From Eledone cirrhosa (lineage: Eukaryota), in NCBI GenBank assembly GCA_964016885.1, contig OZ024740.1:246202001-246266000 (forward strand): DNA of 64,000 nucleotides, written 5' to 3'. The notes under the pieces were generated by a model. It was not told where the DNA came from. It searched no databases and saw nothing but the letters and a program-made list of their open reading frames with translations. The translations under genes were made by a program, and so were the position numbers. Shown piece by piece: positions 4,705-60,920 of this stretch. Position 1 is the first letter of the stretch; every line of letters starts with the position of its first letter.

Positions 4705-4776
4705 TGTGTTGTTATTTCTCTGAGGAACTGGAATCATATCCATATGATTCCAGTTCCTCAGAGAAATAACAACACA
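4705..4776. repeat. Perfect palindrome, 35-bp arms, 2-nt spacer
   Basis: TGTGTTGTTATTTCTCTGAGGAACTGGAATCATAT-CC-ATATGATTCCAGTTCCTCAGAGAAATAACAACACA. Confidence 0.95.
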
Positions 4777-4860
4777 ACCAGGAGCTGGACATATCGATGT
4801 ATTGACGGAGTAAAACACACTTCAACAACATGTGTACCTGTCTCTCCCACACCAATTCGG

Positions 4861-4915
4861 ACTGCCTGAAGAGGTCACAGCCAATGATGGCTGTCACCGA
4901 AATATATATAGCAGT
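4861..4915 (+). ncRNA. Minimal type I hammerhead ribozyme (intact core)
   Basis: Stem I ACTGC/GCAGT; CTGAAGA core 4866-4872; stem II GGTCACAGCCA-ATGA-TGGCTGTCACC; GAAA 4899-4902; palindromic TATATA loop III; UA cleavage site 4909-4910. Confidence 0.85.
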
Positions 4916-7593
4916 ATTTCTATAATTTATAATAAACAAAGCCAAATTTTACATATTTGACTTAACTATTTTACATTACTCTGGAGTAAACAAACCAACC
5001 TGCATACTTCGCCGAGTGCTCCAATCTGCATACTGAGGTGTTGGTAAATATATATATAAGATGTTCATAGTGGAGTATCTCTGAGAGAGAAGACAAACAA
5101 TGAATTGCAGAGGGTGTTGGAAATAAAGCCAGTGAAGAGAAATGGAATGAGATGGTTGGGTCATGGATTGCTAGATGAGAGGAGTGATGGAAATGAATAT
5201 GGAAGGAAGTAGAAGGGGAAGATCAAGGAAAGACATGGTTAAAAATGGAGGAGAAAATGAAAGCCAAGGCATTGGGGAAGGGGAGAATGGAGAAGCTTGT
5301 CATGGGTCCCTCAACACGAATCCTTGTTTTAGCAGGCAGATAGCCTTAAAATGTTCATTATTTTCACTGGGTAATTGTGCCTAAAGTAGAAACAATTATT
5401 TTGTTACTGTATTTTTAGTTAAAAAACAAAGAAAGCTAGAAAATAGATGGGTTGGTATCAAAAGTGTTAATCAAAAACATCTCTTGAATTTCACTGGATG
5501 TTTTTTATGTTATTTTTTAAATTTTTTAATGATTTTGTTTATTTGAATAGTAAAGTATAAGCAGTGAAATTCCTCACTATCAACACTAGAGAAACATCTT
5601 GTTTTGGCCTGATCTCATCAATATTTTGGCCATTCAAGGACTCGGAAATCAACCTGGTTAACTAACCATTTTTTACAGATGTATATTGATTTGTATTGCT
5701 TTTGCACATATTCAAGAAAAAAAACTTTGCCTTATCTATCTACTATCTATCTAGCTTATCTGTCTATCTACACACACAACAAATCGAAAAGCTGTATTGG
5801 TTCTGCTTCAAAGAGCCATTATATTTCTGAAAGTTCTTAGGTTATCTATTGACCTATCTTCACGCACAAACTACAGAAACCCTCAATTGGTTTCTGTCTC
5901 AAAGAAATCATTATATTCCTCATCATTCTACAGCTTTTACTACCAAACTATTTCAGTTTAAAGTCAACATTTTGTCTATTCTTTCCACCCTAAATTTCCT
6001 ACAGGCCACTTTAAGTTCAAGCGACGTAGGACGAATTCATGTGGAGATGAGAATGAAACAATGTTTCAAAGGGAAGGTAAGAGTGCCAAGTCTCATCATA
6101 CCCTACTGCTGACTTCTACTCAGCTTTCAAAAAGGGATTTTAACTGCTTATTATTATTATTACTACTATGGTTCTTCTTATTTCTGTTCTCATATTTCTT
6201 GCTAACCAAATTCTTACTGACCACTAACTGACCATTCAGTAATTTGTTGTTCACTTATCTAATCTCTCTTTCTCTCTCCCTATTGATTTTATTATTCATT
6301 TCACTACATTCAATTATTTACTTTTTAAGTATCCAGTGGTTCCCAATCTTTTAACTCTTTTGTTATCATATTTATAATGAAAAACACTGCCCATGTGTTT
6401 CAAAGAATGTTTTAAATTACCAAGAATTTTGAGGGATTTAGTAAAATATCATTCTCATTAAGTTGGTGTTTGATACATAACTTAAAAGTTCTTACATGAA
6501 GTAATGATGGAAGGTTTTTAATCACAGATTTAAAAATTTTTAAAGAAAAAGGTTAGTACCATATAATTGTGGCTGGTTTCAGGCAGTTTGGTATCAAAAT
6601 GGTCAATTACTAATGATCCCTTTTATTTAAACAATTTCCCCACAGATCCCCTCTCCCCTTCAATTACTTTCCTTTTAGATTGTTGTATAGTGAGAATAAC
6701 AATCAAAAGAGAAATGTTTATACTTAGAATAGAATGGATACTCAATAGTGTATGCATATTATATTTTTAACAAACCTTGTGCCAAAAGTAGAAACAATTA
6801 TATTTTTAACAAAGTTCTTGAAATTTTGAACTTAGCTCATGGACCTTCAATACTACCTTTTATGAATGCTGTCACCCCCTGGAGCCTGCAAACCTCAAGT
6901 TGGGAACCACTGTTGAATATCTTGGTGCTTTCTGGTTTTCATGCCCCTACCCTCTCCTTACATTTTTTTATATTACTATGGGCCAATCACTTGATCACTG
7001 CATTTATGATGTTGACAAGAGGTTGTTTTACTTGGAGCAAACAAAAATATCACAGCATTTTTTTTTTTTCAAAATTATCAGTTCTTGCCGATCAGTGATA
7101 CATATATTCAATGAGCTTCTGCACAGTTTCCACTTAACAAATTCCACTTGCAGTGACACTTGTTCAAGGGGCTGTGCCGTGGGTATTGAAGTTAGAAACA
7201 TTCTTGCAGCCATGCCTTTTAATCAATTATTTTGTTTGCATATCATTTTCTCTCTCTCACCTACTATTTCTCTTATTCCCAATTTTTATGTCTGATGTTT
7301 CTTAATCTGTTTGACTGTCCATTTATTTTTTACTTTCCTTTCTTCACATTCCCTCTATCTCTCCTCTTCTTCCTCCTTCCCATCTTTCATTTTTCCTTTC
7401 TTCATGTTCCCTCTTTCTCTCTTCCTCCTTTCCAGTTTTCTCAGATCTTTCATTATATTTTTTGCATTTAATTCTTCCTATCCTTTGCTCTCTAATTTAG
7501 TAAATCCTTCACCTTTGTTTTTTAATTAACTAACTAATCTGTTAATTTCTTTATTTACACAACTAAATTTTCTTTACAATATATATATATCTA

Positions 7594-7658
<65 letters not shown>

Positions 7659-7740
7659 TGTATGCATGAGTGTTGGTGTGTGCGTGTGTATGTTGTACGT
7701 ATGAGTGTCCATAAGTGAGTTTTTTTAATTTTTTTTATTA

Positions 7741-10700
7741 TGCGTGGGGACATAGAAATAGTCGGGCTGGATACCCGATCATGCAGTTAAACCACTGGGA
7801 GTGAAGAACCCCTAGCCCTTTTCAGAGCATTCTTCTAGGAGAAGGCATCTCAGGAAACTGGGTTAACTCCGACATAAAACCTGCGGCTCAGTAGTTACCG
7901 ATGATGTTGATCTTTTCTTCTTTTCGGGTTATAGCTACTGTAGCTCAGAGAGTGGGATTGGCTCAGTGCACAGTCTTTCCTCACTTTAAAAATATTCTTC
8001 ACGCACAGGCATTGCACGATTGCATTAATTAATAATTATTAAGTGTATTATTATTATCATTGTTACTATTATTATTACTTTTTTTCTTTTTTTTTTCTTT
8101 TCCCAATTCAATGATGTTCCAAAACAATATAAAAGAGATAATTAACAATAAATGTTCTGGAACAAAAGAGATAATTGGCAATAAGAGCAGGGACCCCAGG
8201 TTATCACAGCCTGGGCCCGCTCGTCATCGTGCCACTGTAATAGAGCCAAACAAGGCATTTAGTCTTGGCTGCTGGAATGTACGGATGCTGCTTGACAGGG
8301 ATTCTTTGGAACGTCCTGAACGAAGGACCACTCAAAGGAGCTTCGATGTTACGATCTTGACATCGTAGCTTTATCTGAGATGAGGTTAGCTGGAGATGGT
8401 CATCTTACAGAATTTTGTGGAGAATATACATTCTTCTGGAAAGGAAGAGATGAAGGAACCAGAAGAGAGGCTGGGGTAGCATTTGCTGTTAAGACTGTTC
8501 TTGTGAATAAATTAGAAGAATTCCCAGTAGGGATTAGTGAGCATCTTATGTCCATTAGAATTCCGCTGGACAAAGGAAGATATGCGACCCTGGTGAGTGT
8601 GTATGCTCCAACTATGAATTCTGTCGATGAAGAAAAAGTGTCCTTTTATCATGCCTTGAAAGGTGTTTTAAGAAATATCCCTCAGGCAGACAGTCATCGT
8701 GCTTAATGACTTTAATGTTAGAGTGAGTAGGGATTTTAACACATGGAATGTAATCGGAAGGCGTGGGGTGGGAAAGTGTAACAACAAGGGTATGCTCCTG
8801 CTGCAGATGTGTGTGTTACCAACACCATGTTCCAACAAAAGAACAAATTTAAGACCATATGGATGCATCCTGCATTTAAGGAATGGCATCTTTTGGACTA
8901 CGTCCTAATCAGGATGCGTGACAGACGGGATGTGCAGTGTGTTCGTGCTCTTCGTGGCGCTGAGTGCTGGACGGATCACCGCCTGGTACGCGCAAAAGTG
9001 AAACTAATCACTAAATGTAAAATCCGGGCTCTTGGTGTTGCCCTGCCCAGAAGATTGAATGCTGCTCGTCTTAGGGATAAAAATGTGAAGAGGAGGTTGC
9101 AGATGTTAGTGAGGATTGGCCGACCCTTAAAAAGTCAGTTTATGATGTAGGCAGGTGTGTTCTGGGATTGGTGCGGAGAAAACATCAAGACTGGTTTATT
9201 GAGAATGATGAACATATGGAAAACTTGTTGGCTGATAAGAGGCGTGCTCTGTCATGCTACTTGACGGCAAAACCACAGGAGAAGAATATGTTGCATAAGG
9301 AACTCAAGGATGTGAAATCACGTGTTAGGCGGAGTCTTTCTCAGATGAAGGATCAGTGGTGGAGTGAGAAGGCTGATGAGATACAAACTGTCAGATTCCA
9401 ATAACACAAAGCTGTTGTACAGTCTCTTGCGTGAAGTTTATAGACCATCTTCTTCTCTGGTGACACCACTTCGCAGCAAGGATGGCAAAGAACTTCTTTG
9501 TGACTCACAAGGAATTCTACGAAGGTGGCGCGAGCACTTTCATGAGCTTTTGAATCGGCCGTCTGTCGTCAATGAAGATTTCCTCAATCTCATCCCAGAA
9601 AGTCCTGTGAAAGTAGCTTTTGCAGAATCTCTAACACTTGTGGAGGTTGCAGTCGCTATCTCGAAGCTGAACAGTGGAAGATCTCCACGTATGGATGGCA
9701 TACATGCAGAGCTCCTACAATATGGTGGTGAGAGACTCCTGCAACATCTTCACTCTTTGTTTGGCATGATATGGGCTAATGAATCCGTACCTGAGGACTG
9801 GAGAGATGCAGTAATGGTGGTCTTGTACAAGGGAAAAGGTAACAGGAATGATTGTGGGAACTACAGAGGTATATCATTGCTTTCTGTCGTAGGGAAAGTT
9901 TTATGTAGGGTGCTTCTGGACCGTCTGCTGACACACATTACGGATTGTGTTCTTCCTGAAAGTTAATCTGGTTTTTGTGCTGGACGCGGCACTACTGATA
10001 TGATCTTCTCTGCTAGACAGCTCCAGGAGAAGTGCATGGAACAAGGTTTGGATCTGTATCAGGTTTTTGTCGATCTGACAAAAGCTTTCGATACTGTTAA
10101 CAGAAATGCATTATGGAAGGTTCTCCAGAAACGTGGTTGCCCTGATAAGTTCCTTGCTTTAGTTAGGTCTTTCCATGACGGCATGAAGGCTTGGGTTAAT
10201 GTCGGAGGTAACATGTCAGAGCCTATCTCAGTAAAAACTGGAGTGAAACGGGGATATTCCAGCACCGACCCTGTTTGCCATATACTTTGCAATGGTTTTC
10301 TATATTGCATTCAGGAATTGCGAGCATGGTGTTTACATCCAATATCTAACATCAGGCGCTTTGCTGCAAAAACAAAAGTATTTACATCAATCATAAGAGA
10401 CCTCTTGTATGCAGATGATTTCGATCTTGTAAGCGCACACAGTGATATGCAGCACATTTTGAATGCATTTTCTGATGCTTGCACTGCCCTAGGATTGACT
10501 CTGTCTCAAGAAAACCGTCGTCATGTACCAACCTACCCCTGGTAAGCAGTACATTGAACCAAATATCTATGTGTATGGTAAACGACTTGGAAGCACTGTA
10601 AATCGATACAGCAACCTTGATAATGAAATCCCACTCGGGATTAGGAAAGCAAGTGATGCTTTCGGAAAGCTAGAAAGGCGACTCTGGGGTCAGCGAGACA

Positions 10701-11593
10701 TATGCAAGAAGACAAAGGTAAAGGTGTACAAGGCATGTGTGCTCTCTTCTCTTCTTTATGCCTGCAAGACCTGGGTCACATATCGACACCACCTTAAGCA
10801 ATTGGAGCGTTTCCATCAGATGTGTCTCAAACGGATCCATGGCGTTCACTAGAGGGACCACATCAATGATGTCGAGATTTTGGAAAGCTGTCTCTGTGAC
10901 AGTATAGAAGCTCTTGTGTTTAAGCAACGACTCCGTTGGAGTGGTCACCTTGCCAGGATGAAGGATTCTAGAATACCAAAACAACTATTTTAATTAGTTA
11001 AAGGAAAACGACCGCCACATAAAGCAAAAAAGAGGTATAAGAATTCCTTGAAAGCCTCTTTGAAAGAGACTAACATCTCTGCTGATACATGGGAAAAATG
11101 TTGTTGCTGATCGTAATAAATGGAGAAAGACAGTATATGAGGGAAAGGTTACCTTTGAGGCATCCCGAATCGCATACGAGAAAGTAAAGCGGGATGTGAG
11201 GAAGGGCATTGCTGTTGCATTTCCAGACGGCGAAGGTCCTCCTATGGTGCTGACATGCAACGTCTGTGCAAGACTCTGCCTAAGCAAAGCTGGACTCGAA
11301 AGTCATCTTCGCAGTCATAAAGTAAGACCAGTGGTTGATTACCAGGCTGCTGTTAGAGATGCTACTCATCATGCTTGCCAAACATGTGGTAGAGAATGTA
11401 AATCAGCAGGAGGGCTCAAACGACATGCAAAAGTACATGAACTCCAACCACGACCGGCTATTCCCAGTGAATGTTTTGGTTGCAAACTCTGTGCAAGACA
11501 TTTTAGATCATTGGTTGGGCTAAAAAGCCACATTCGATCGCAGCGCTGTTAATTGCTATCGTGTGTGTGGATATGTTTGTGTGTGCGCGTGTG

Positions 11594-11629
<36 letters not shown>

Positions 11630-11711
11630 ATTGTTGTTGTTCTCGTTATTATTATGTTTGTTTTTTTTCGTGCAATGGCCATACTCGATAACGAGGGGGC
11701 AGCCATCATCA
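7741..11711 (+). mobile_element. Near full-length degenerate RTE-clade LINE (APE endonuclease + RT + three C-terminal C2H2 zinc fingers)
   Basis: LGCWNVR, VYAPT, LLDYVL and TDHRLV (APE); NYRGISLLS, FVDLTKAFDTV and LLYADD (RT); three CxxC..H..H-type fingers at 11196-11552; 3' CTCG-ATAA-CGAG stem-loop and CATCATCA tail; many stops and frameshifts; 5' UTR boundary approximate. Confidence 0.88.
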
Positions 11712-11719
11712 TGTATGTA

Positions 11720-11774
<55 letters not shown>

Positions 11775-13350: not shown

Positions 13351-13390
<40 letters not shown>

Positions 13391-13789
13391 GTGTGTGTAT
13401 ATGTTATGTAGGATACCCGTAGATGAAAGATCAAGGAAAACAATGCTTAATCTATTGCAAAAGAGCTTATTTAGTATAAATAATGCCTCATTCACTTAAC
13501 ACGTATGTGCGACCATTTATGGGTCCAGTTGTTGCCACCACTGTATATTTGAGGATGCTCTTCCAAACTGACCTGTCATCGGGCACGAGGGCAAATATAT
13601 GAAAAAGGAAGTCTCTTCAACAGACTATTTTTGCTCCAAAAGAGAGGTTCGTATTGGAAACGAGGCGTAATTCTGGAGTGTTTGAATTGTAAAGCACACC
13701 ATTTGTTTATACCATGACGATGGTCTTTCTTTGGCCCACGACTGAAGTGGGCACGATACGGACAGGTTCCATAAAGATCTGATAAGCAC

Positions 13790-14795
13790 ACTTTGTACCC
13801 TGGGGCTTAAAATCAGTCAACATAAACCTCTCTAGTGCAACCTTTCTTGACATCAGCCTGGACTGTCAACAGGCATATATGAACCGAATGAGAGGCTAAA
13901 ATACATCAACAGAAGATCCTGCCACCCACCCACAGTAGTGCCCAACATTAACCGTAGAATCTCGAATTTATCATCCAGTAGAGAGATATTTGAACAGGCA
14001 GCGCTGTACTATAACAAGGCCCTCTGAAATAGTGGATTGAAGGAACAGATCAAATACATGCCTAATAGACACCCACCTAGAAATAAAAATAGAAAAATAA
14101 AAATAATCTGGTTTGTTCCTCCTTTCTCACTAAATGTAAAGACTAATATAGGTAAGAAATTCTTTGACATTATCGATAAGCACTTTACTCCTCAACATAG
14201 GTACAGTAAGATCTTCAATTGACATTCAGTGAGAATTTCCTATTCTTGTGCCCCATCCATGAGATCCAAAATGACTGCAAAAAGCAAGCCAGATGAGAAT
14301 CCAGGATGCTCTTGCAGGAGGAAAGACGACTGTCCATTACAGCAAAACTGTAATGTTAAGTTCATAATATACAAGGCAGAGATCAAATACACAAACACCA
14401 ACCAGCCAGAAACCCATGGAAAATATGTAGATCTGGTTCAGGACTGGTTTAAGCAAATGTTCTACTTGCACCTCTCCTCATTTAGGCATCCTGACATGAA
14501 AACCACCACAGTGCTGGTAAAAAGCGCCTAGCAGCTAAAAGACAAATAAGTACTGCATGACATGACATGGAAAGTAGTGGAAAAGTCCACGCCATTCAAA
14601 AACAGAAGGAAGAGATGCCCGCTCTGTTACAGTGAGAAATTTAGGATCTTACAGGGTTCATACTCACCAGAAAAATACCTAAACTCAAAAACAGAAGTCT
14701 CTAGGCACTACTTGCATCAAAAGGCCCACCTTTCATGCAACTGGAAACCCACACCACAAGATGCCCTCTCACCAGACCTGCCAAATCCTCCATGA
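13790..14795 (+). mobile_element. Penelope-like element relic (RT thumb, linker, GIY-YIG endonuclease)
   Basis: RKIKIIWFVPPFSLNVKTNIGKKFF, ISYSC, CSCRRKDDCPLQQNC..IIYKAEI..KYVD(G)L..FK..H..SF and CPLCYSEK..LNSKTE are characteristic PLE motifs; multiple stops. Confidence 0.85.
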
Positions 14796-14984
14796 CAGTA
14801 TCCGCCCTATTACCTTTCAATGAGCATGCCACACCCACAAAGAATAAGAGAGCTTAGTATTACAATATTACATTTTAAGCTAACAATCACACATACAATC
14901 AACCTTTACATTTTAGAGTATCAGTATTGAGGAAATATCGATGAATCATAAATATTTTACTCTTTATTGCACTGTCCGTGAGAA

Positions 14985-25538: not shown

Positions 25539-26606
25539 ATAATATATATATATATATAATACAATAAAATTATGTCGGGTCACTCTTGAGTGCTACTGGT
25601 AACATGTAAACCAGTACAACCTGTCGCATGGTCGGGTCATCGGCGACTAAACTGGCAACCCCATCAAGTTCACTTGGTGAGGAGAGTGATTTTGGACACC
25701 CTGCAGGACAAAAAACAAAACCTGACAAAGGGTGGAAGAACTCATAAGAGTCAACGGCCATCCAAAATTGTGTAAATATGTATATACACATGTACGTACG
25801 TATGTGTATGTATATGCGTGTGTATATGTCTCAGATGTCAGGGAGGTCTAGCCATGCCTTTTTCAGGACAGCTCGTCCTGCATTGAATCCCACCTGACAC
25901 TCAGCTCTCACCTGTGGTCCCAAGAAGCTGTAGCATGCGACAGCAGCCACACCCCGTAAACCGCCTTGGCTGGCGGGCCGAACCAGGTTGAGGGTGGGCG
26001 GACTTATCTGAAACCCCCTGGTGAATTAGATAGGGGATGCCTGCCCCTGCATGCGAAGACTGAACTCGGTGGAGGAGGACAACATCGTCCCAACAGTCAC
26101 GAAGGCGGCGACAGCAAGCGGTGTGGAGCGCTAGGGCACGGCAAGGAACTACAGACGTCGTGGCCATCCACTGCAGCCAAGGAAGTCCCTGGTCGTGACG
26201 GTCCTCTGTACCACCGGATTCTGGCTTCTACGGCTGAGTGAGTGGGACCGTCACTGTGCACTGGTCCTCCCACTATAAACCTTTCCCGCACAGGTTTCTT
26301 CTTTAGCGTGCACTCCCAAAGCCCTGCAGCGATGAGCGAGAGGTGGAGGTAACCTCTGGGAGTTGCCAGTCTGACTCCGGCCTCTTCCCCTGTCCCCACT
26401 GTCCCCGGACCTGCAAGTCGAGGATCGGCCTCCACAGCCACCTTCGTGCCCACGGCAGGCGGGAACAACAATAAAGAAGATGTCATCATTGTTTACGATG
26501 AACAACCAAGAGACAATAATATATATATAATGTGTGTATGTATATATATATGTATACGTGTGTATGTATATATATATAATTAGAAAGTGAACACAATATA
26601 TAACTA

Positions 26607-26674
26607 CTCCATTACCAAAGGTTTCAGGACCCTAGACAATATTAATATATGTCTAGATCGTTCATCAGACAGAG
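26607..26674 (-). ncRNA. Minimal type I hammerhead ribozyme candidate
   Basis: Minus strand: CTCTGT-CTGATGA-acGATCTAGACA..TGTCTAGGGTCct-GAAA-CC-TTT-GG-TA-ATGGAG. Stem I is 6 bp with two GU pairs, GUA cleavage triplet, imperfect base of stem II. Confidence 0.7.
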
Positions 26675-26831
26675 ATGTTATGAATGAAAATACAAAATGA
26701 GATTCAAAAGCTGTTAAAATTGGAAGTGAGGCTGGAAAATAATGGAAAATATACATAAGAAAAAATAAATAAAAAAATTAATATGTAAGAAAATTAATAT
26801 ATAAAAAATATATAGAAAATTATAAAAGCTA

Positions 26832-26872
<41 letters not shown>

Positions 26873-27207
26873 TTCAGATATAAGTAAAATACAAGGTAAT
26901 AGGAAAATACTCTTTTCCTATTACCTTACTCTACTACCTTAAGTATCGAGTACTCTGGTGCATTATGGTCCACCTGGTTCCTTACCACACTTCCTTTGTT
27001 ATATATGTGTATATATATATATATGAGAGTAAGAAATAGGTTTTACTCATTTACTGGGTGTATTTTAGCTGAACACTATGATAATTAAATTAAGCAGAAC
27101 CAGTGTATAATTGTAATGGAGTTACTAACCAATTCTAAAAGTTTAAGACATCCAATTACTGACAATTGTTTCTTCCTATATTATTTCTTTTTACATATTA
27201 ATTAATT

Positions 27208-36994: not shown

Positions 36995-37944
36995 TGATAG
37001 ACACAAACAGGGTGGGAGTTCTAAGGACCTGGCATTTTGGTCGAGAAGGACTGGGTATAGTGGTTATTGTGTGTCTGGAGAGCGGGCATAACATTGGTGA
37101 TAAGAGGAGAGAGATAAGTGAGTTGGAAGTGCCTGAGTGGAGGTGACATGAGATGCAAGTATGTTGTTGTTTAGGTGGGGAGATATTAGAGCGCAGGACA
37201 AAATGTCTAGCATTATTTCATCCAGCTCTCTGCTCTTTGAATTCAAACCTCTTTTCATCCTTGCTGGGTTAATAGAATAAAGTACTAGTCTACAATGGTG
37301 AGCTGATAGTGGTGCTTGAGCTTTGGACGAGATGCCCTTTGTCCAGGGTCTTTTTTTTTTTTTTTGTGTTCCGTGTTCAAATCCGAGTGTGATGTGTTTG
37401 GAAGGTTGACTTAACCGATTGTCCAGTTTAACAATACCACTTTGCCCTTGGGCGCCGGTTGCAAGCATTCAGACCAGGTCTCCAGTTTGAGAATATCTTA
37501 ATTCCTCCCTCTCTCCCTTCTTCCTTTCCACCAATTCCAGAGGCCCTGATTAAACAGTAAACTTACTATCAAAATGTTGCAGATCAGTCATGATTGAAAT
37601 AACCTGTGATAAGCTTTTCCAACAGTGACCTAATCCTGTTTGAAGTGGCAGCAGCAATAGACTATAGTGATTGCTGTAGTGGTTGTGCTAGCTGCCATGT
37701 TGAGTGTGATAGTAGCTGTAGCGTTTGCCCAGTTGCTACACTTTTAACTGGTTTTTGTTTGTTGTTAAATGCACATGCACACTTTGCAAACACACATACA
37801 CACAACCATAAACATACTTGTAAGCACTCGCATATACTTACAAAGACATGCACACTCAAACATTTTGCAAACTCACTTTTACTTGCACACACACACCTAT
37901 GCATTATTTCAAACAAATACACACACATACTCAATCTAGGGAGG

Positions 37945-38880
37945 TAATATGACCACAATGACTGTATAATGACAGTGATATGACCACAATGACGGTATAA
38001 TGACAGTGATATGACCACAATGACAGTACAATGACAGTATAATGACAGTGATATGACCACAATGACGGTATAATGACAGTGATATGACCACAATGACAGT
38101 ATAAGGACAGTGACATGACCACAATGACGGTATAATGACAGTGACATGACCACAATGACAGTGTAATGACAGTGATATGACCACAATGATGGTATAATGA
38201 CTGATATGACAGTGACAATACCACAATGACAGTATAATGACAGTGATATGACCACAATGACAGTATAATGACAGTGATATGACCACAATGACAGTATAAT
38301 GACGGTATAATGACAGTGATATAACCACAATGACAGTATAATGACAGTGATATGATCACAATGACAGTATAATGACAGTGATATAACCACAATGATGATA
38401 TAATGAGTGATAAGACCACAGTGATGGTATAATGACAGCGATATGACCACAATGACAGTATAATGACAGTGATATGACCACAATGACGGTATAATGACAG
38501 TGACATGACCACAATGACGGTATAATGACAGTGACATGACCACAATGACGGTATAATGACTGATATGACCACAATGACAGTATAATGACAGTGATATAAC
38601 CACAATGATGGTATAATGAGTGATATGACCACAATGACAGTATAATGACAGTGATATAACCACAATGATGGTATAATGAGTGATATGACCACAGTGATGG
38701 TATGATGACAGATATGACCACAATGACGGTTTGATGACAATGATATGACCACAATGATATGATCATAGTGATATGACCACAGTGATGGTATAATGACAGT
38801 TATATGACCACAATAACTGTAGTATGACCCCAATAACAGTAGTATGACCCTCAATAATGGTATGATCATAGTGATATGGC
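37945..38880. repeat. Intronic minisatellite, about 31-bp unit GATATGACCACAATGACAGTATAATGACAGT
   Basis: About 30 head-to-tail imperfect copies built from ATGAC sub-repeats. Confidence 0.95.
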
Positions 38881-43971: not shown

Positions 43972-46900
43972 GGTTTAGCGTCCGTGTTCCACGCTTGCAT
44001 GGGTTTGGACGGGGGTTTTCCCACTTGAGGCAAGAGTGGTTGTCTTGCTCGCATAGGACTGTCTGGCGGGTTTTCTACAGTTGGATGCCCTTCCTAACAC
44101 CAACCACATTTACAGTGTGGGGCTGGGAGGTTTTTACCGTGTTGCCTACACGGCCACATTACAGCGTGGACTGTCTGGCGGGTTTTCTACAGCTGGATGC
44201 CCTTCCTAACACCAACCACATTTACAGTGTGGGGCTGGGAGGTTTTTACCGTGTTGCCTACACGGCCACATTTACAGCGTGGACTGTGTGTTTTTTGTCG
44301 TGACACCTACACGATCTCATTTGTTTCGGCCTGGATGTTGTGGGACCAACATAACTGTACATTGAAAGGGGCGGTGTGGAGGTGGTGGGACGGGGGGGGG
44401 GTGTTTTGATAGAGATGCCTACTGACTGTAGTAAGTTTTTACTTTGTATTTAGGTAAGGCGGGTCTTCTCTATTACTGAGTACCGCCAAAGGTCTCGGTC
44501 CAGTGACATTGTCTTGGAGAGGTGTAAGCGTGTGAGGTCGGAATTTATCAGCTCGTCCCATGTTTTTCTGGGTCTGCCTACTCCGTGGCTACCGTCTATC
44601 TTTATTGCCCTGCATTTTGTTATACAGCTGTCGTCTTTCATGCGCATCACGTGACCGTACCAACGTAGCCTTCTCTCGAGTAAACAACATCTGATCCCTC
44701 TTATTTCTAATTTTTTCCTTAGTTCGTTTATGCTTTGCCGTTCACGTATATTACTATTGCACATCCAGCGGAGCATGCAAGCTTCGTTCCTCTCTAGTCT
44801 GCGTATATCCTCTGCACACAATGCCCAGGTCTCACTGCCATGCAGCATTGCTGTTCGTATGCAGGCATCGTATAACCTGCCTTTCATTTTTAGGGAGAAC
44901 CCTCTAGCGGCTAATAGTGGTATAAGCTCTCTGAACTTTTTCCATCCAGTTCTGACTCTAGCTACTGTACTTTCAGAGCACCCTCCCCCACTGCTGATTT
45001 TGTCACCCAGGTAACGGAAGCTGTCCACTATTTCTATAGAACCCTCTGCGCAGTTGAAGGAGCTAGTATTTTGTGGGCACTTGCTGCTACTTATTGCACC
45101 AGAGCACCGGCCACATGTAAAATCTATGTTCTTAGTTAGCTTACCTGTGATCCCACTACATCTTTTATGCACCCATACTTTGCATTTGGGACATAAAATG
45201 GAGTTTCTACCTACGCCTTTCCTACACACTGAGCATGGCCATTTCCCAGATGGGACTGCCGCCATATTTTCTTTCCTACAAACTAGAACTTTAGTCTTAG
45301 CCAGGTTAATTTTAAGGCCTTTTGATTCTAGGCCGTGCTTCCATGTTTGGAATTTCTTCTCTAGTTCGGTCATTGATTCAGCTATGAGCGTTAGATCATC
45401 TGCGTATAGGAGTTCCCATGGGCAGCCGGTCTTGAACTCCTCTGTTATAGCCTGAAGGGCAATAATAAATAGTAGGGGGCTAAGAACAGAGCCCTGATGG
45501 ACACCAATTTTTACGCTAAACTCTTCACTATATTCGTTGTTAATTCTAACCTTACTGACTGTTTCTTTATACATGGCTTGTATAGCTCTCACAAGCCATT
45601 CGTCAACACCTAGTTTTCTAAGAGACCACCAGATAATGGAACGGGGGACTCTGTCGAAGGCTTTCTCCAAGTCGACGAAAGCTAAGTATAGGGGTTTACT
45701 TTTAGCTAGGTACTTCTCCTGTAGTTGTCGTACAATGAAAAGAGCGTCTGTGGTACTTTTGCCTGACACAAATCCGAACTGCATTTCATCTAGATCAATT
45801 CTCTCTCTGATTGTACCAGGGAAAGGCACCACTGATGCCCTCTTCCTTGTGAGGCAATTACAGGAAAAGTACCTAGCTAAAAGTAAGCCACTCTACTTGG
45901 CATTTGTCGACCTTGAGAAAGCCTTTGACAGAGTTCCACGTGCAGTAATCTGGTGGGCTCTTAGAAAACTAGGAGTAGATGAATGGCTTGTGAAAGCGGT
46001 ACAAGCCATGTATAGGGGAGCAGTCAGCAAAGTTAGGATTGGCAATGAGTATAGCGAGGAATTTAGCGTACAGGTTGGGGTCCACCAGGGCTCTGTTCTT
46101 AGCCCTCTCCTGTTCATCATAGTCCTGCAGGCAATAACGGAGGAGTTTAAGACCGGATGCCCATGGGAACTCCTGTATGCTGATGACCTCGCACTCATAG
46201 CTGAATCTATGGTAGAACTAGAGAATAAATTCCAAACCTGGAAGCAGGGACTAGAGAGAAAGGGCCTCAAAGTCAACATGACAAAGACTAAGGTCCTTAT
46301 AAGTAGACGAGAAAACAGAACCCAGATCCCCTCAGGGAAATGGCCTTGCTCAGTATGTAGGAAAGGTGTAGGTAGGAACTCCATTCTCTGCCCCAAATGC
46401 AAACAATGGGTACACAAGAGATGTAGCGGGATCTCAGGAAGCTTAATTAAGAATGTAGGATTCACATGCAGCAGCTGTGCTGAAACAGCAAGCAAACAGC
46501 CACAGGAAACAAGTACCACCAATCTCTGGGAGGGCCCTGTAGAAACAGTAGACAGCTTCTGCTACCTAGGTGACCGAATTAGCAACGGAGGTGGGTGCTC
46601 AGAAAGTACAATAACTAGGGTAAGAACGGGATGGAAGAAGTTTAGGGAACTACTACCACTGCTAACTGCAAAAGGCTTCTCCCTCAGAATGAAAGGCAGA
46701 CTGTATGATGCGTGTATCCGAACAGCGATGTTGCATGGTAGTGAGACCTGGGCGCTGAAGGTGGAAGACTTACGTAGATTAGAGAGAAACGAAGCCTGCA
46801 TGCTCCGATGGATGTGTAACAGTAATATACGTGAACGACAAAGCATAAATGAATTGAGAGAGAGACTGAGCATAAGAGGAATCAAATGCTGTGTGCAGGA

Positions 46901-49187
46901 GAGGCGGTTGCACTGGTATGGACATGTGATGCGTATGAAGGATGACAGCTGCATAAAAAGGTGCAGAGCACTAGAAGTTGATGGAAACCGCGGAGTGGGG
47001 AGACCCAAGATGACCTGGGATGAGGTGATAAAAGCCGACCTTACCCAATTACACCTCTCAAAGACAATGACACACGACCGTGACTTCTGGCGGCACGCAG
47101 TAATACAGAGTACCTGACCTCCCATGGGTACATGCTGAAGCATATAAACAATATGCCCCCACACCCACCACCGCAAGGTGGTCGTGGAGGTGCCACGGCA
47201 AAAAAGCACCCAGCCCACACTGTAAAGTGGACGTGTAGGCGCCACGAAAAAGCACCCAGCACTCACTGTAAATGAGGTTGGTGTTAGGAAGGGCATCCAG
47301 CTGTAGAAATCAAGCCAGATCAGTTCCTGTATGAGCAAGGCATGGTCAGCCGACCAGACACTGCCCACAACAGGACAACCCGTCTAACCCATGCTAGCGT
47401 GGAAGAACGGACGTAAAACGGTGATGATGATGATGATGATGATTAGTTGCGCTATTACTTTTTCCGTGACCTTCATGACCTGGTCGATTAATTTAATGCC
47501 TCTATAGTTACTCCTATCTAGGGCATCTCCTTTTCCCTTATAGCAGTTAACGATGATGCTGCTACGCCAGTCCTTCGGAACAACCCCATTCTGTACGACT
47601 TGGTTAACTATCCGGGTGACCATGGTGTGTCCCACCGAACCAGATGCCTTCAGCATCTCAGCAACTATTTCCGAAGGACCAGCCGCCTTACCCGTCTTTG
47701 ATTGCCTTGCTTATTGTACTACCCTGGACTAACACTGCTGGTCCCTCTATTGGGTCGATGTGGGGGAGACTGTCTTTCTCCCATTTGTTCTCCTCATTTA
47801 GAAGCCTTTCGTAGTGACACTTCCAAGCTACCTTCTTATCAGTGTCGGTGATGGCAAGTATGCCATCATCGTTAAGCACACACTTCTCCCCGACAATATC
47901 ACGGTTTTCCTTGACACATTGCCTGGCAATCCTGAACACCTCACGTTTTTGGTCCTCACGTTGTAGAACATGCTTGAACTTTCTTTCCTCTGCTTCCCTT
48001 CTTGCGAAGTACACTTGTCTCCTAGCTTCCCTCCTGGCCACCTGATAGTCTTCTCTACTTCCCCCATCCCGCCATGCTTTCCAAGCCTGCTTTTTGGCCT
48101 TAATTGACTCCTCCACCTTACTGTTCCACCACCATGTTACTCTCCTCCTACCTACAGGCCTGCTCCAGCCACAGACTTCGTCTGCCGCCGTCAGCAGGTT
48201 TGCTCTCAGGAATTCCCACTGTTCCTCTATATTATACGACTCTAATTGCTCTTCCTTACTGTCGAAAGCGTCAAGTAATATGCTTTGAAATTTATTTCTG
48301 GCTATGGGGTCCTTTAGCTTCCATATTTTTCTCCTGAGGATAGTCCTCTTCCGCTGTCTAGTACGTCTCGTCCTGACTATGAGGTCGCTAATTATCAGTC
48401 TATGTTGGGAGGTGAATTCTTCATGGGGGAGGGATTTAGTGTTAACAACAGACACTCTGTCACGTCTTCTAGTAAGGATATAATCTACCTGGCTTGTGTG
48501 TTCCCCCGATCTATAGGTGATCAAGTGATTGTCTCGTTTTTTGAAGTTAGTGTTACAGATAGTTAAGTTATTTGCGTCGCAGAATTCCAGGATTCTGGAG
48601 CCTTCCTCATTTCTAGTACCGAACCCATAGCCTCCATGGATTCCGTCATAGCCGTCACAATGCTGTCCAACGTGACCATTTAGGTCGCCTGCAATAACTA
48701 TATAGTCACTGTCGGTTATTTGGGAGGTAGCGAGCATCAGTGTCTCGTAGAATCTGTCTTTTATAGCACCGGGCAGTCCGGATTGTGGTGCGTACGCAGA
48801 TATTACTGTCACCGTAGTTTTATTGAGGACAAGTCTTATTTTAATTATTCTGTCGTTCACTCTATTTACGTCTATTATCTTATCTGCCCACTTTTCTGCT
48901 ACCATGATTCCTACCCCACCCAACCCATTGTCATTTCCCACCCAGAAAAGCTTATAGCATCGTTCTTTACCCACGATGAATCTAGCCTCCCCTCCCCTTC
49001 ACCTGGTCTCTTGAATACAACAAACATCGACCTCGTTACGTTCAAGCATTTCTACAACCTCGTTAGAGCGACCCTTTAAGGTGCCTACATTCATGGTACC
49101 AACTCTGAAGTTTTGGATTGCGTTTGGAGGGTGGGAGCGGTGGGGCGCGGGGGGGGGGGGGGGGGGGGGTTATGTTAGCCATCCTGG
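43943..49187 (-). mobile_element. Near full-length young RTE LINE (host), flanked by 9-bp TSD and interrupted by a nested copy
   Basis: TSD GCTAATTAT at 43934-43942 and 49188-49196; (GAT)n tail; APE ORF 47688-48974; RT 44450-45812. Visible lesions: TGG>TGA at 48999-49001, an 8-bp deletion near 47697, the nested insertion and a 112-bp 3' UTR duplication (44056-44280). Confidence 0.93.
45813..47439 (+). mobile_element. 5'-truncated RTE LINE nested antisense in a related RTE
   Basis: Open RT frame VPGKGTTDALF...LLYADD...HAVIQST; own 3' UTR and (GAT)n tail; TGATT at both junctions (45808-45812, 47440-47444); host frame IAQL|IRERID rejoins when the insert is removed. Confidence 0.93.
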
Positions 49188-49736: not shown

Positions 49737-49937
<201 letters not shown>

Positions 49938-50136: not shown

Positions 50137-50764
50137 GGAAATAGTAGACAAAAATATACCTATTTTTTCTTCAAAGTCCTGACTGCGCAGTTTCGCTGAT
50201 CTATATGCAACAATTGTGCATTATAAAAATGCACCATCGTTGTGAGGCCAATCAGCTCTTTCAAGGAACACCTCAGAGAAAAGGACTGTTTTCCAGACGT
50301 TGTAGCAAGTGAGAAAATCTCTATAGATGGAGGGAGGAATTAACATGTGATACATCGGTCAATAAAAAAGACTGTTTCCTTTGTAGCAAGTGAAAATATC
50401 TCAGAAGATGGAGGGAGATATTAATACATGACACAGAGGTCACAGACAGGTAGTAAGATGGACAGAAAGTAACTATTGTATTTGCTAGATAAAGCAGTTA
50501 GTACACTTTCAGATTAACTCAACCATAGGGGAGTTTGAGACAATATAATAATGAGATACACACATATACATATATCATCGTGTGTGTGTGAGGTGTCAAC
50601 CTTAACCAGTTTTGCTTGATCGAAAGAGCTAAAATAATTAAGATAACTAGATAATCAGAGCTATTTATCAAATTACAAAATAAGAGGAAATAATAGACAA
50701 AAATATACCTATTTTTTCTTCAAAGTCCCGACTGCGCAGTTTCACTGATCCATATGCAACAATT
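50137..50764 (-). mobile_element. Hammerhead-bearing element with about 78-bp direct repeats 549 bp apart (retrozyme / PLE pseudo-LTR-like)
   Basis: Repeat at 50137-50215 and 50686-50764. Minus strand 50177-50267 reads TCCT-TGAAAGA-GCTGAT..ATCAGC-GAAAC-TGCGCA-GTC-AGGA (degenerate core). Confidence 0.65.
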
Positions 50765-51919: not shown

Positions 51920-51923
51920 TTAA

Positions 51924-52790: not shown

Positions 52791-52829
52791 TATATAATAT
52801 TATATATATATAATATTTCTTTCTCCTAG

Positions 52830-53021
<192 letters not shown>

Positions 53022-53874: not shown

Positions 53875-54087
<213 letters not shown>

Positions 54088-56070
54088 GACTTTCTACACC
54101 ATCTTGACACCTCCTGCATCTATTGCCACAGTCACAACTGCCATATTTCCTCTGCTCCCCCTTATCTCTATCTCCCCACTGTGATCATTCATCCCACCTA
54201 ATTGACACCCTCTTGGTGTTTCATGCCCTCCCATTTCTAATCTTTCTCTATTTTTCTTTTCTTCTTTTCTTCTTTCTTCCCCATTGTTTTTTTTTTCTTG
54301 TAATAGTCCTTTCCCTTCAGATTTGTCTAACCTTCCCTTATCATAACTACTACCACCACCACAACCACCATCGCTACCATTGATTCCTCTCAATCCAATT
54401 TGTTATCTGAGCTGTTTGTTGATTTCAGTTTGCTTACATTGTTAACAAAAAAACAGCCAACTAAATTAAGCTAGCTGTCCACCTAGCTAATAAAACCTGG
54501 CTAGCTGTCCACCTAGCTAATAAGACCAAACTGTCCACCTAGCTTATAAGACTAAACTGGCTACCTAGCTTGTTAACTAGATAATTAAGATCTAGTTGGC
54601 TACCTAATTAATTAAACCTGGCTATCCCCAGCTAATTAGCCCTGGTTTATTAGTACTTAATACTCGCTGTGAGTTTACTCTCTTACACCCTGCAACTCTA
54701 TATATCATTGTCTTTACCACTACCATCACAAGTCATCCAAAATGTTTATTTCTGTTGCTGTTCCTTCTCCCAGCCATATATCATCTCTCTCCACTTTTCA
54801 AACTCTTACACATCCACTACCACCTACTCAAAAGTGTTCAGCCAATCTCAGATAAGACTTAAAAGCTTTGTATTAAATGAAGATATTTGATTGGTCCATT
54901 CATTCCCCACACATCCCATTTCTCTGGGATGTTTCATTTGAAAAATAACCTATTATCTTCCTTGATCTTTTTTTGTGGGGTGGGTGGGGGTGGGGGGTAG
55001 ATGTATGTGTGTATCTGGGTGGGTTTACCTGGGTACATCGGTAGACTATCTGCCTGGAGTTAGCTAGATATTGGGTGTTCGATGGAAGTATGTTTATCTA
55101 TGCAAGTTATTGTGGAGATGAGTGGGTTGGTGTATATATGTAAGTATGAGTGTATATATGTGATGCATTTATGTATATGTGTACATATGCATGTGATGGA
55201 TCAAGTTTGTTAGTATGAAAGTATTATCACAATCCTGTTTTACTAACTTTAACTTACTTAGCTGTGTTAAGTCACATGACATTTGCTGTGTTAATTATCA
55301 CAATATTTCCTGTGTAAGTTACACAGTATTTGCTGTTTGTGTGTGTGTGTGTGTGAGGTGATAGTGATTGAATGAAGTCTGTTTGTTTTTTGTGTATGGT
55401 GGTAGTCATAGGTATTTTTGATAGAAAAGTGAGCTTATTTATGTTTGGTGGTGTCGATGGCAGTAGTAAGATAATTACATGTGATTGTGTGGAGTTACAA
55501 TGATAGGAACAGTGGCAGTAGGGAGGCATGGTCAGGTTGTTATATTTCTGGGTAGTGGTGGTTTGTTTATCTAATATATTACTGGTACATTATTTCTTCC
55601 AAGGCATGGATTGCAATGGGATTGCAGCAGAGTAAATAATTCAGTCCTTAACCAGCTGAATTTTGGACAGAAAAAAAATGTGGAGGGTGGAGGAGAATGA
55701 AAGATCTTACTCAAGTACGAAAAATAAATAAATATATATATATATATATATATATTATAAATATTTATGTGTATGTGTGGCACAACCCATGTGAAGTTAA
55801 AGGCATTTGAGCTTAATATGATTTCATAATATCCATCCTCCCAACCTCCTGAATGCACCCTTGGGCAAGGCACATAATATTATTTTCATGGGTGTGTGGC
55901 CTAATTGGGCATAAACAAACTATTCCATCCCTACTGTACTGCAAGGTCCAGTCCAGTGGTTAGCAGTAGGAAAGGAGTAAAATATACCACTGTGTGAAAA
56001 AAAAAAACAACAAAAACAATAACCCTAACTGTTTGAATGAAAAAAAAATTAATCACTAAGTAATTAAATT

Positions 56071-56206
56071 AATAAAGAGACAATTCAGCTATTATAACAT
56101 GGAACAGTTGGATGTAAAAAATTAATAAAAAAAGCAAACAAAACACACCACCAACAAAATATGTATGTATATATATGTGTGTGTGTGTGTATACTTATAT
56201 GTATAC

Positions 56207-56255
<49 letters not shown>

Positions 56256-56346
56256 CATACACAAGCACACAAAGACACAAAACAACAAAAGCTGTAATGT
56301 AAAGAAAAGACTATGTACATAAGAGTTATTCTAACTGGAAATTAAA
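56071..56346 (+). promoter_or_regulatory. Candidate PI4KB polyadenylation signals
   Basis: AATAAA near 56071 and 56124; ATTAAA at 56341 followed by a T-rich tract; the site actually used cannot be determined. Confidence 0.3.
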
Positions 56347-57974
56347 TTGTAAATTGTAAATGTATTTTTTTTATATTTCTCTTTCACTCACTATCTCTTA
56401 CTTTCTTTATCATTTGCCTCTTTCTCATTACTACTTTTATTTTCTTCTCCCTTCATTAACTAAAAGTTTAACTAAAATACTTTTAAATATCTCTCTTAGT
56501 TTGTATTTTTGTTACAAAAAAAGAATATCTTTTTACTTCTAATTTCTTTTATGTGCACAGCCAACTGGCCCAACCTCCCTCATAGTGGGACCATCCAAAT
56601 CTCAAATTATGGTTTCAATGAAAGCAGGGTATGGCATGGCCAACTGGCCAGACCCTCCTCCTAACAGCACCACCCAGAGTTCCACTGAGTCAGGCTTGAT
56701 GCAGCCAACTGGCCCGATCTCACTCATAATAGGACCAGCCGGATTCCAAAACACAGCAACAGTCCCGATATTGTGCAAGGTACGGCATAGCCATCTGGCC
56801 AGATTTGGCTCATAACAGGATCACCCAGTAACATGGCTCCACTAAGTGTAAGGCTTGGTGTGGCCAACTGGTCAGACATTCCTCATAGTGGGACCACCCG
56901 GCTCCCAAACTATGGTTCTGATGTGAGCAGGATATGATGCAGCCAACTGGCCTGTCTCTCCCCATAACGGTGCCATCCAGTTCCACACTGTAAACATAGT
57001 TGGTGTTAGGAAGGGCATCCAGCTGTAAAAATCTTAGCCAAATTACAGTTCTGTCTGAGCAAGGTACAGTGCAGCTAATTGGCCAGACTTGTCACATGAC
57101 ATGCATGACCCATCTAACCCATGCAAGCATGGAAAATGGACGTTAAACATTGATGATGGTGATGATGTGCCATGGTTTTTGTGAAGCCCTCAAATGAGCC
57201 TTGATTCAGCAGACCTGCTCCAGGTGTTCTACTAGATATATTTTATATCATAAAATGATGATATATATATATATATATATATATATCATTATCATCATCA
57301 CTGTTTTGTGGCCACTTTCCATGCTGGCATGGGTTTAACAGGTTGTCAGTTTCTGAGACTGGACCATGTTCTGTTCATATTTTCGAATTTAGCATGCTTT
57401 ATACAACTGGATATCATTCTTCATACTAACCACTTTATAGTGTGGACTGGGTGCTTTTCATCATGACACAGACATTACCACTTTACATTATAATAGCATA
57501 TATAAAATGTCAACAAGAAAAAATGACATTGAGAAAAATACAGTACAGTGGTAATATATTAATTTATCACTTGATATAGTGGGAAAAGAGTCTTAACATT
57601 TTGGATGCTAGCCCTTCATTAGAATATAGAATGAGAGAAAGAAGATAAATGAGAATAAGGTAAAAAAAAGAAAAAAACAGGAAAAGGTAGTTTGGAGAAA
57701 AAGCACGTTGTTAGGCATCTATGTTGAAGGCTCACAAGAAAGCTTTTCCTATCTAGGTAATCTCATTTGCTGTAAATATGGATGTACTGAACTGAAAGTA
57801 TTGTAGGCAGCATGTATGCTCTGCTGGATGAATAATGTTAGTGTACAGGAATGAGCACAAGTGAACTGAGAGAAAAGCTGAATATAAGATTCGAATGTAA
57901 TGTGCAAGAGAGACAATTGCATTGATGTGTAAGGAGAGCATGTGTTGTGTAAAAAAAAGTGCAATGCATTTTAC

Positions 57975-59950
57975 TCGGTCCCTAATCAGCTGTACTATAA
58001 CTCCATTACTTTCATGACCTGGTCCATGAGCTTTATACCTCTACAGTTTCCTCTATCTAGTGCATCTCCTTAACCCTTATAGCAGTTGACAATGATGCTG
58101 CTGCACCAATCCTTTGGTATGACACCTTCTAGTATTACCTAGTTAACAATACATGTGGTTATGGTGTGACCTACCGACCCAGATGTTTTCAGCATCTTGG
58201 CAGCTATACCCGATGGACTGGTTGCCTTACCAGTCTTCATATCTTTAATTGCCTTACTACACTGCTGCTGACTTGTATTGCTGAGCCCTCTATAGGGTCC
58301 ACTTGGGGTAGGGTCTCTTTCATAATGGCTCTTCCACGCATCTTTCTTCTCAGCATCTGTGAGGGCAAGTGCACTTTTATCATCCTGGATGCACTTCTCA
58401 CCGATGACATCGCAATTTTCTCTAATGCACTGCCTCACAATCCTGAATATCTCCTGTTTCTGGTCCTCACACTGCAAAACATGCTTGAATTTCCTATCCT
58501 CTACTTCCCTTCTAGATAAGTATACTTGTCGCCTAGATTCCCTTCTGGTCTCTATGTAATGTACCCTGTTCTTCCACTGTTTCCATGCCTGTTTCTTGGC
58601 CTTAATTGCCTCATCTACCTTATTGTTCCACCACCAAGTCACTCTTCTTCTCCCTGTGGTCTTGCTTCAACCACAAATCTTGTCTGTCACCTTCAGTAAG
58701 TTATTTTTTTGGAACACCCAGTGCTCTTCTATATTGAATGTCTATCTGTTCTTCTTTACTGTCATAGGCGTTGAGTAAGATATCTTTAAATCTGTTACTG
58801 GCTTGAGGGGTCTTTGAGCTTCCCGATCTTTCTTCTCCAGGTTGCCTTCTGTTTCCAAGTTAATCTAGTTCTGACAGTGAGGTCGCTGACAACTAAGTTA
58901 TGTTGGGAGGTACATTCCTCACCAGGGAAGGCTTTTGTGTTTACGACCGTCCATCTATCCCGTCCTCTGATGAGGATATAATCTATCTGACTAGAATGCT
59001 CTCCTGATCTATAGGTAATCAGATGGTTGTCGGGATTTTTGAAGTTTGTGATACATATCGACATGTCATTGGCGTCGCAGAATTCTAGAAGCCTGAAGTT
59101 TTCTTCATTTCTTGTAGCCCCCATGAACTCTATAGAAACCGCCACAGTGTTTCCAAATGTGTCCGTTAGCAATGATTAGGAAGTTATTGTCATTTGTTAG
59201 GGCAGTGGTGTTCATTAAGGATCCGTAAAAATCTATCCTTAAGTTCGTCTGGCAACCCAGATTGGGGTGCATATGCTGATATAATTGTAGCAATTGTTTT
59301 ATTCAGGACTAGTCTGAATTTAATGATTCTTGCGTTCACCCTGTTCACAGAGATGACCTTATTTACCCATTTGTCAGCTAATAGTATACCTACACCACCC
59401 AACCTGTTATCATTTTCCACCCAGAAAATTTTGTAGCACTGATGTTTGCTTACAAGGACTCTAGCGGACTCTCCTCTCCATCTAGTCTCTTGCACACAGC
59501 ATACATCTATTTCCTTTCGCTCTAACATCTCTACGATTTCTGCTGCTCTTCCTTTCATTGTGTTTATGTCGATGGTGCCAACTCGGGCATTTGCAGTCAC
59601 TTGTGGGAAAGGGTGAATTTTTGCGGGGGAGTGTGTATGCTTTCTGTCTCTGAATTAAAGCTTCGCATGGACGCTTGGTAACTCGTGGGGACATATTCAT
59701 TTACTTATTTGGGTTTGTTCCATTATCCTCAGCTCATCCATAGATAACGATAAACAAGAATTTCTTTGGGGCAGGGATAGGAAGGACGGTAGTAATAATG
59801 ACAGAATTTGTTGGCGCGGGTAATGGGTGAGAATATGTTGCTGTGGTTTGATTGGTCGAAAAGCCTATGGTGGTGAGTGGGGGTGGGCAAGAGGGAAATT
59901 GTGAGATAGGTAGCTGAAGATTCGGGGGAAATAAGCAGATACAAGTAGGC
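57975..59950 (-). mobile_element. Degenerate RTE LINE (APE and N-terminal RT part)
   Basis: RVGTIDINTMKGR..VCCVQETRW..AYAPQ..IDYILIR..WWWN..NCYKG; 5' boundary approximate. Confidence 0.85.
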
Positions 59951-60566
59951 ATATTTGATAAGGCGAATGTGCTAGAATTTCGAGGATGGTCGCTGACTAA
60001 CTGTTAGATTGATTGGGATGAGTTCGTAGGGAGTTGGAGAAAGAGAGGGTGAGAACGTCCAGCGTGGTTTATTTTTAAAAAAAGTCGAAATATACGTTGA
60101 AGAAATTAATTGAAATTCAGAACTCATCTCTTTGTGCAGGCAATGCATGTACAGTTCCTTGCAATAAATCAAACCCATAGATTTTTCAAGCAGGAATTGT
60201 TCTTCTGTGAATTTTAGGGAAAAGGTTTCAATTATTAATACTTTTGCCAATAGTACTAAAATGACACTGGTTTAACCAAAAAAGAGATTTATTGGGTACA
60301 TTGTATTAACTTTTGATTACCAGGCAAACAAATTTTTTTAAAAACTCAGACATTAAGTTAACAAATCTAAAAAAGTACATTTTTTGGTTCTATTTTTCTA
60401 AATTTTCACAAAACAAACACGAGGTATGGCAGTGAACATTAATTAGGTAACGGGTTGACTGTCTTTAGACTTTTACCAGTATTTTACTGTAGTACTTAAT
60501 TCTTAATGGCTCTCTCCACCTATTTGTTTAGCCCTGCATCTGCCATTTGATCAAGTACATTATATA

Positions 60567-60920
60567 CAATATATTAATAAATGGAAACTATATTTATAAA
60601 ACCATAATTATTTTATTATATATATTTTTCAATGGCAACCAAGGCAGTCTTGGTGCGCTTTCATCAAATAAAATACAAAATTTGTTTTATAAATAGTGAC
60701 ATAGCCATGGAAAACAACCTTGACAGTTGAAAATTCGCTGACTATCCAGCGAATTTTCAACTGTCAAGGTTGTTTTCCATGGCTATGTCACTATTTATAA
60801 AACAAATTTTGTATTTTATTTGATGAAAGCGCACCAAGACTGCCTTGGTTGCCATTGAAAAATATATATAATAAAATAATTATGGTTTTATAAATATAGT
60901 TTCCATTTATTAATATATTG
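60567..60920. repeat. Perfect palindrome, 174-bp arms, 6-nt spacer ACTATC
   Basis: 60567-60740 reads as the exact reverse complement of 60747-60920 by eye. Confidence 0.95.
60812..60878 (+). ncRNA. Hammerhead-like fold (C3>U variant) in the palindrome arm; mirror copy at 60609-60675 (-)
   Basis: Stem I TATTTTAT/ATAAAATA; TTGATGA; stem II with ACCAAG/CTTGGT; GAAA; AATATATA; TA site. Confidence 0.6.

Follow-up and report, generated by a model that had tools for sequence, protein, structure and literature searches.

Hammerhead folds and repeats in the window

The window, the whole stretch of 64,000 nucleotides of Eledone cirrhosa DNA that was analysed, lies at C1:246.20-246.27 Mb in a 3.0-Gb genome and is rich in (TA)n, LINEs, and SINEs. 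Hammerhead-shaped folds are present at all four loci where an earlier note had placed them, namely 4861-4915 (+), 26607-26674 (-), 50176-50269 (-), and 60813-60877 (+), here loci A to D, and the mirror copy of the locus D fold has been located at 60610-60674. The features are listed below (PLE, Penelope-like element; pLTR, pseudo-LTR).

4705-4776: perfect palindrome, 35 bp arms
4705..4739, minus strand: family A short inverted arm, 35 bp; left-flank junction found in unassembled contigs of one sample
4741..5046, plus strand: family A pLTR fragment whose 5' end lies at the CATATG hot spot; it holds the hammerhead and most of the tail and is followed by (TA)n
4861..4915, plus strand: family A type I hammerhead fold, core CUGAAGA, palindromic stem/loop III, AUA site
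13480..14790, plus strand: Hydra-type PLE ORF of which a decayed 3' half is left; a separate family from A, B, and D
26578..26833, minus strand: family B pLTR fragment with (TA)n tracts on either side; it stops at the short end, and its 5' boundary is approximate
26607..26674, minus strand: family B type I hammerhead fold, core CUGAUGA, GUA site
26893-26927: perfect palindrome, 15 bp arms
26893..27000, plus strand: family E, a heavily truncated separate insertion with the 15-bp hairpin at its 5' end
50137..50764, minus strand: family C, ORF-less 549-nt unit present head to tail about 1.15 times; direct repeats of 79 bp at 50686-50764 and 50137-50215
50176..50269, minus strand: family C hammerhead fold, GUC site, family core UUGANAA (U3-A8)
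60562..60740, minus strand: family D inverted arm; it runs to the short end (+105) and contains the mirror hammerhead at 60610-60674
60567-60920: perfect palindrome, 174 bp arms
60747..60947, plus strand: family D direct arm with the hammerhead at 60813-60877 and part of the tail

The palindromes claimed near loci A, B, and D all exist, with arms of 35, 15, and 174 bp, and these three are the perfect palindromes with arms of at least 15 bp in the window outside (TA)n. The direct repeat with a spacing of 549 nt at locus C is likewise there (79 bp, 95% identical), and the four units, described as sequence-unrelated, show no cross-similarity inside the window. One pairing did not hold. The 15-bp hairpin, taken as the companion of the B hammerhead, belongs to a different family, E, on the other strand, and was rejected as part of B since, among 24 other B loci, just 1 has E upstream of its B unit. 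Family E itself has 1777 candidates in the genome; the longer copies (L211-L229) carry part of a further hammerhead, namely its 3' half, in which stem III has 5 bp, and inversion within stem II is common among them.

With a type I descriptor built on a canonical core, two sites were found in the window (A and B) versus none or one per shuffle in 10 shuffles. C and D escaped the descriptor owing to damage in their window copies, the core reading UUGAAAGA (8 nt) in C and UUGAUGA plus an extra A in D, with C3U in both arms of the D copy. Elsewhere, the core CUGAAGA was clean in 49 of 50 parsed copies of family A, and CUGAUGA in 26 of 29 of family D and 22 of 25 of family B. An Rfam scan gave 54 matches at E≤1, none of them to a hammerhead family, and on the hairpins just sub-threshold microRNA-like matches. 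Minimum-energy folding of A, B, and D monomers did not give the hammerhead shape, as is expected because stem III is tiny.

Each of the four loci is a copy of its own separate high-copy family. First-look candidates in the same genome numbered 2679 for family A, 1987 for B, 1252 for C, and 2203 for D (40 scored in each case). Exact 26-28-mers occur genome-wide 469 times for the long end and 306 times for the short end of A, and 12,304 were counted for D, subfamilies included. The loci have therefore proved not to be single-copy sequences without covariation: the families are high-copy and their stems covary between subfamilies. When copies rather than events are counted, and those copies that the regular expressions parsed, stem I of D reads ATTTTAT/ATAAAAT in 11 and ATTTTGT/ATGAAAT in 10 of 28, the base of its stem II reads AAG..CTT in 15 and AGG..CCT in 6, and a stem II pair of C changes from U-A to C-G between subfamilies (19/20 versus 17/18). 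The identity of the four loci as assigned to these element families is held with high confidence.

Coding Penelope-like parents and the ORF-less family C

Judging by their longer copies, the A, B, and D loci are 5'-truncated pLTR ends of ORF-bearing PLEs. Every one of the families has variable 5' ends and two fixed 3' ends past the hammerhead; in family A the latter lie at +110 and +199, and (TA)3+ follows the long end in 22 of 30 cases. The 3' ends of family D are fixed at +105 and +190 downstream of the hammerhead and its 5' ends are also variable; (TA)n flanks as in A occur at B, C, and D insertions. Among 88 arm ends of A, 35 fall in one 10-nt bin, partly set by the reference end, at a CATATG hot spot at -124 from C3 (window 4741), and this hot spot could be a transcription start.

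The complete family A element L260 consists of a pLTR (807-1110), a decayed ORF, a long 3' UTR, and a second pLTR (4810-5033), with a period of about 4.0 kb. In family B, the pLTR is followed directly by a PLE-type ORF in all three extended loci (L146-148), which were picked for common downstream sequence. For D, 5 loci with long upstream matches were extended, and 4 of them have an endonuclease end 1.1-1.5 kb upstream of the D unit. The hammerhead pLTR is thus placed on both sides of the ORF in L260, upstream of it for B, and downstream for D. The earlier proposal of several families of hammerhead retroelements holds in that these are multi-copy and of PLE type. The description of these as short non-autonomous elements fits the ORF-less C but fails for A, B, and D, which have coding parents in longer copies.

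Another account has every one of the four loci as a short non-autonomous element that inherited a built-in palindrome from a palindromic master. Most sampled copies are indeed short and non-coding, and the concentration of A arm ends at -124 would suit such inheritance, but the position of the junction varies from copy to copy and the longer A, B, and D copies join PLE ORFs. This account is largely refuted for those three families and highly improbable overall; the non-autonomy of C stands. Short copies may nevertheless act as secondary sources.

Craig et al. (2021, PMC8557442) have described RWR/RWK, DKT, and CxCx5C motifs and the lack of CCHH as the diagnostic set of the Hydra clade of PLEs. 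The RWK-type motif is found near the N terminus as RMRWRA in L260 and L261 (A) and as RMRWKA in L146 and L147 (B); the N terminus of D was not recovered. The change from DKG to DKT is seen in DKTNNLY of L260 and L261 (A) and in DKTKNLY of L146 (B), with none seen in D. The CxCx5C linker occurs in L260 and L262 (A), L148 (B), and L144 (D). With regard to CCHH, CxxC between GIY and YIG was found in 0 of 12 loci scanned. The A, B, and D parents carry Hydra-clade motifs, by which they would be assigned to that clade. The Pfam GIY-YIG match to the A parent ORF is weak (E 0.01, below the cut-off), and a 375-aa piece of this parent had no match to Pfam RT or PDB. Intact homologues of 701-806 aa, which have the same architecture with YRDD and are 38-46% identical to the A parent, also had no Pfam RT match. 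Because Pfam barely detects these proteins, the RT identity of the parents is argued from motifs and similarity. A different PLE was observed at L081:1692-3100, right after a family B copy, with a Pfam RVT_1 match and CxxC between GIY and YIG.

A link to PLEs had been drawn earlier through the relic at 13.8-14.8 kb. The relic (13480..14790) is of the same PLE type, and its nearest protein is the B parent, 41-57% identical in pieces. It is, however, dead and full of stops, and it was rejected as parent of A, B, and D after blastn against 10 parent loci gave no match.

The family C unit of 549-570 nt has a GC content of 35% and wraps head to tail, with a maximum of about 1.65 units. Two hammerhead-spanning copies were found in 5 of 30 loci and no trimers in these 30 loci within 1.5 kb flanks. 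The longest stop-free run is 66 codons. U3/A8 is present in 34 of 38 parsed copies, N7 is free (C, U, G), and loop III is palindromic in 27 of the 38, in three forms. Family C appears to hold a type I hammerhead under selection. No PLE ORF match near C adjoins the unit reproducibly (85 loci, duplicates counted). In L201 a fragment of an endonuclease lies upstream of C but was rejected as a mark of the C parent; the two are separated by a (TA)n tract, and the fragment is absent from the other C loci. Taken by its sequence, family C is likely to be retrozyme-like, working like a non-LTR retrozyme and derived from a PLE. Just past their short ends, B and C both read AAATAGCTCTG, possibly a common recognition signal.

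Two-armed insertions and their origin

The earlier note had proposed that integration generates perfect foldbacks. Head-to-head inverted arms do accompany integration, and 10 of 35 A insertions are symmetric; perfection is not general, with many arms offset or non-overlapping. Family A was sampled by position via each end motif (30 loci per end, exact motifs), and duplicates were removed from the long-end (L153, L155) and short-end (L231) samples. In the long-end sample, 16 of 28 loci were two-armed and the partner was short in 16/16. In the short-end sample, 19 of 29 were two-armed, with 18 long partners and one ending at +166. Pooled, the long end was paired with the short end in 34 of 35 two-armed insertions. 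By a hand calculation, independent choice of ends at the crude 306:469 ratio would give these runs with probabilities of about 3e-7 and 1e-4. Among 30 matches to D there were 8 clean two-armed insertions (the complex L303 and L311 excluded), 8/8 long/short. Family C has two fixed ends and inverted arms, and 8 mirror arms stop at the short site. Long/long insertions in the score-ranked sets amounted to one each in A (L002/L015), D (L043), and C (L274/L280).

Besides the 10 symmetric ones, the 35 two-armed A insertions comprise 11 in which the long arm reaches further 5', 9 in which the short arm does, and 5 without overlap. In D, the overlap of the arms is none or about 5 nt in 5 of 8. In the unassembled contigs of one sample, the left junction of the window A copy is bridged and its palindrome centre is spanned by no contig. 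The same was found for D, so the perfect arms of its 174-bp palindrome may stem from assembly polishing. As side observations, A, D, and E often lie inside each other's (TA)n flanks, which suggests common target tracts, and in L296/L297 and L301/L302 short and long D ends stand head to head 3.4-3.9 kb apart, possibly as large two-armed insertions.

The two arms of an insertion also resemble each other in their variants. At polymorphic sites, the arms of A disagreed in 21 of 217 cases (9.7%) versus 35% permuted (55 two-armed of 101 copies), and those of D in 3 of 46 (6.5%) versus 39% (8 of 29 copies); 0 of 2000 permutations reached so low a discordance. Rarer variants common to both arms made up 0.98% in A versus 0.07% permuted. 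The excess in D is weak, with 5 of 1316 sites and an equally high permuted maximum. The long/short pairing, common variants, and offset arms argue for two priming events on one RNA. Later conversion from arm to arm or one dominant source per cell could mimic the concordance. Twin priming as the origin of the inverted arms is given a probability between even and moderately good.

In the proposed mechanism, the RT-endonuclease of the element would nick both strands of a (TA)n target. Of the two 3'-OH ends, each would prime at a different site of the same RNA, one using the long and one the short site, and both cDNAs would extend toward the RNA 5' end, halt at variable points, and join head to head. 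A lone primer would leave a solo fragment, as at B. Partial tandems, as at C, would result if a circular or multimeric template were copied for more than one unit length, and C would rely on protein borrowed from an autonomous PLE. For the hammerheads, cleavage is predicted in the dimeric state or when a protein assists. The whole reading, with A, B, and D as truncated PLE ends, C as their ORF-less relative, and the inverted repeats arising from twin priming on one RNA, is considered fairly likely. The narrower proposal, that inverted pLTRs reflect coordinated twin priming at two fixed sites and that C uses the same machinery, is tentative, with the balance slightly against it.

A rival mechanism is snap-back or self-priming: once a single cDNA (or antisense template) has folded back, copying turns it into a perfect palindrome, the endonuclease trims the new arm at the short site, and deletions later leave the arms uneven. 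The foldback idea of the earlier note comes near this. Self-priming from junction palindromes has been proposed in PMC3846280, and snap-back accounts equally well for the common variants and the long/short pairing as well as for the 10 symmetric insertions of A. In addition, some A short arms of 16-58 bp, including that of window locus A, are centred on the self-complementary CATATG at -122.5 and stop before the short end; these fit snap-back or later deletion better than twin priming. A short arm that holds sequence missing from the long arm, or a lack of overlap, argues against simple snap-back, which would need an extra one-sided deletion for every such case, 14 among the 35 A insertions and the majority of the 8 in D. 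Later deletion may be a source of uneven arms. Snap-back is judged unlikely.

Two further results concern the 5' ends of insertions. Strict blocking under twin priming would predict a cluster of long-arm 5' ends immediately past the short start; in A none is seen (5 lie within the tail, the others are spread), which counts against twin priming. A pile-up of 5' ends at the hammerhead cleavage site, a possible sign of cleavage, was rejected, as 2 of 88 A arm ends lie at +46 and the hammerhead is retained in nearly all of the 30 D matches; the depth step that had suggested it is due to subfamily divergence.

The arms could also derive from two RNAs, one per strand, taken up by an asymmetric protein dimer, their similarity reflecting a dominant germ-cell source locus or conversion. 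Offsets and long/long cases would follow naturally, and differences specific to one arm in A (309 of 7256 sites) exceed those found in both (71). In vitro, both strands have been reported to be extended for a PLE, with synthesis starting at two internal sites (PMC11167929), a result that suits twin priming as well. The D arms that abut near the short start without overlap (5/8) suggest instead a single template, and private variants, 7 in A and 5 in D, are carried by both arms; the use of two RNAs is considered quite improbable. The same in vitro study reports a start site that is not different between strands, which counts against twin priming, and describes the PLE tail as the gap between the two RT start sites. 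In PMC8557442, the origin of tandem and inverted PLE structures is called "still undefined," and a literature search, with most subscription papers outside its coverage, found no mention of twin priming in PLEs.

Relation to known elements and other features

Most of the biology seen here is known. The elements form new families of kinds already described, and the mechanism offers one lead that can be tested. The Hydra clade consists of PLEs with a C-terminal endonuclease (EN+), and File S1 of Craig et al. lists Hydra-1_Obim from Octopus bimaculoides (PMC8557442). The families here resemble this clade in the RWK-type and DKT motifs, CxCx5C, the lack of CCHH, and the C-terminal GIY-YIG (a weak Pfam match here), as well as in the pLTR hammerhead, (TA)n targets, 5' truncation, inversion of a copy at the 5' end, and a one-sided tail. 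Such a tail, like 5'-truncated copies in inverted orientation, has been described as a PLE trait (PMC8557442; PMC3846280). Unlike in the Hydra clade, the tails here are 85-120 nt versus the 30-40 nt described, the A parent has a period of about 4.0 kb with a long 3' UTR whereas described Hydra elements are generally <3 kb, and several high-copy families occur within one genome.

Cervera and de la Pena (2014, PMC4209133) have described PLE minimal hammerheads with a short stem I, a long stem II, and a palindromic loop III, lone dispersed motifs from truncated PLEs, and opposite-strand pairs 100-700 bp apart, all of which are matched here. The U3-A8 core variant is reported from Schistosoma PLEs in the same source, there in a coding PLE, whereas here it sits in the ORF-less tandem unit of C. 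Family C is like non-LTR retrozymes in its type I hammerhead, non-coding nature, low GC (35%), and head-to-tail permuted copies (PMC7229834; bioRxiv 10.64898/2026.07.22.740005). It differs from them, as described there, in a unit of 549-570 nt versus 150-450 and in having no long arrays. It differs further in its PLE-style two ends with inverted arms.

Twin priming is known from LINE-1, in which two primers on one RNA give a 5' inversion with small gaps or overlaps. Unlike in LINE-1, both start sites here are fixed and internal, and overlaps can span hundreds of bases, which would need strand displacement. If twin priming is true, one step would give head-to-head arms, a one-sided tail, and common variants, and this genome would keep thousands of such records. 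The long/short rule, the same-template signal, and offset arms yield predictions that can be counted and that would tell twin priming apart from self-priming. With family C comes a non-coding element of 550 nt whose predicted ribozyme core is naturally compensated. These families also yield thousands of perfect hairpins that resemble microRNA precursors.

Elsewhere in the window, two RTE-type LINE ORF pieces lie head to head at 44450-47120, 39 nt apart and with arms 75-80% complementary, and a minisatellite of 11-, 20-, and 31-bp units occupies 37880-38770.
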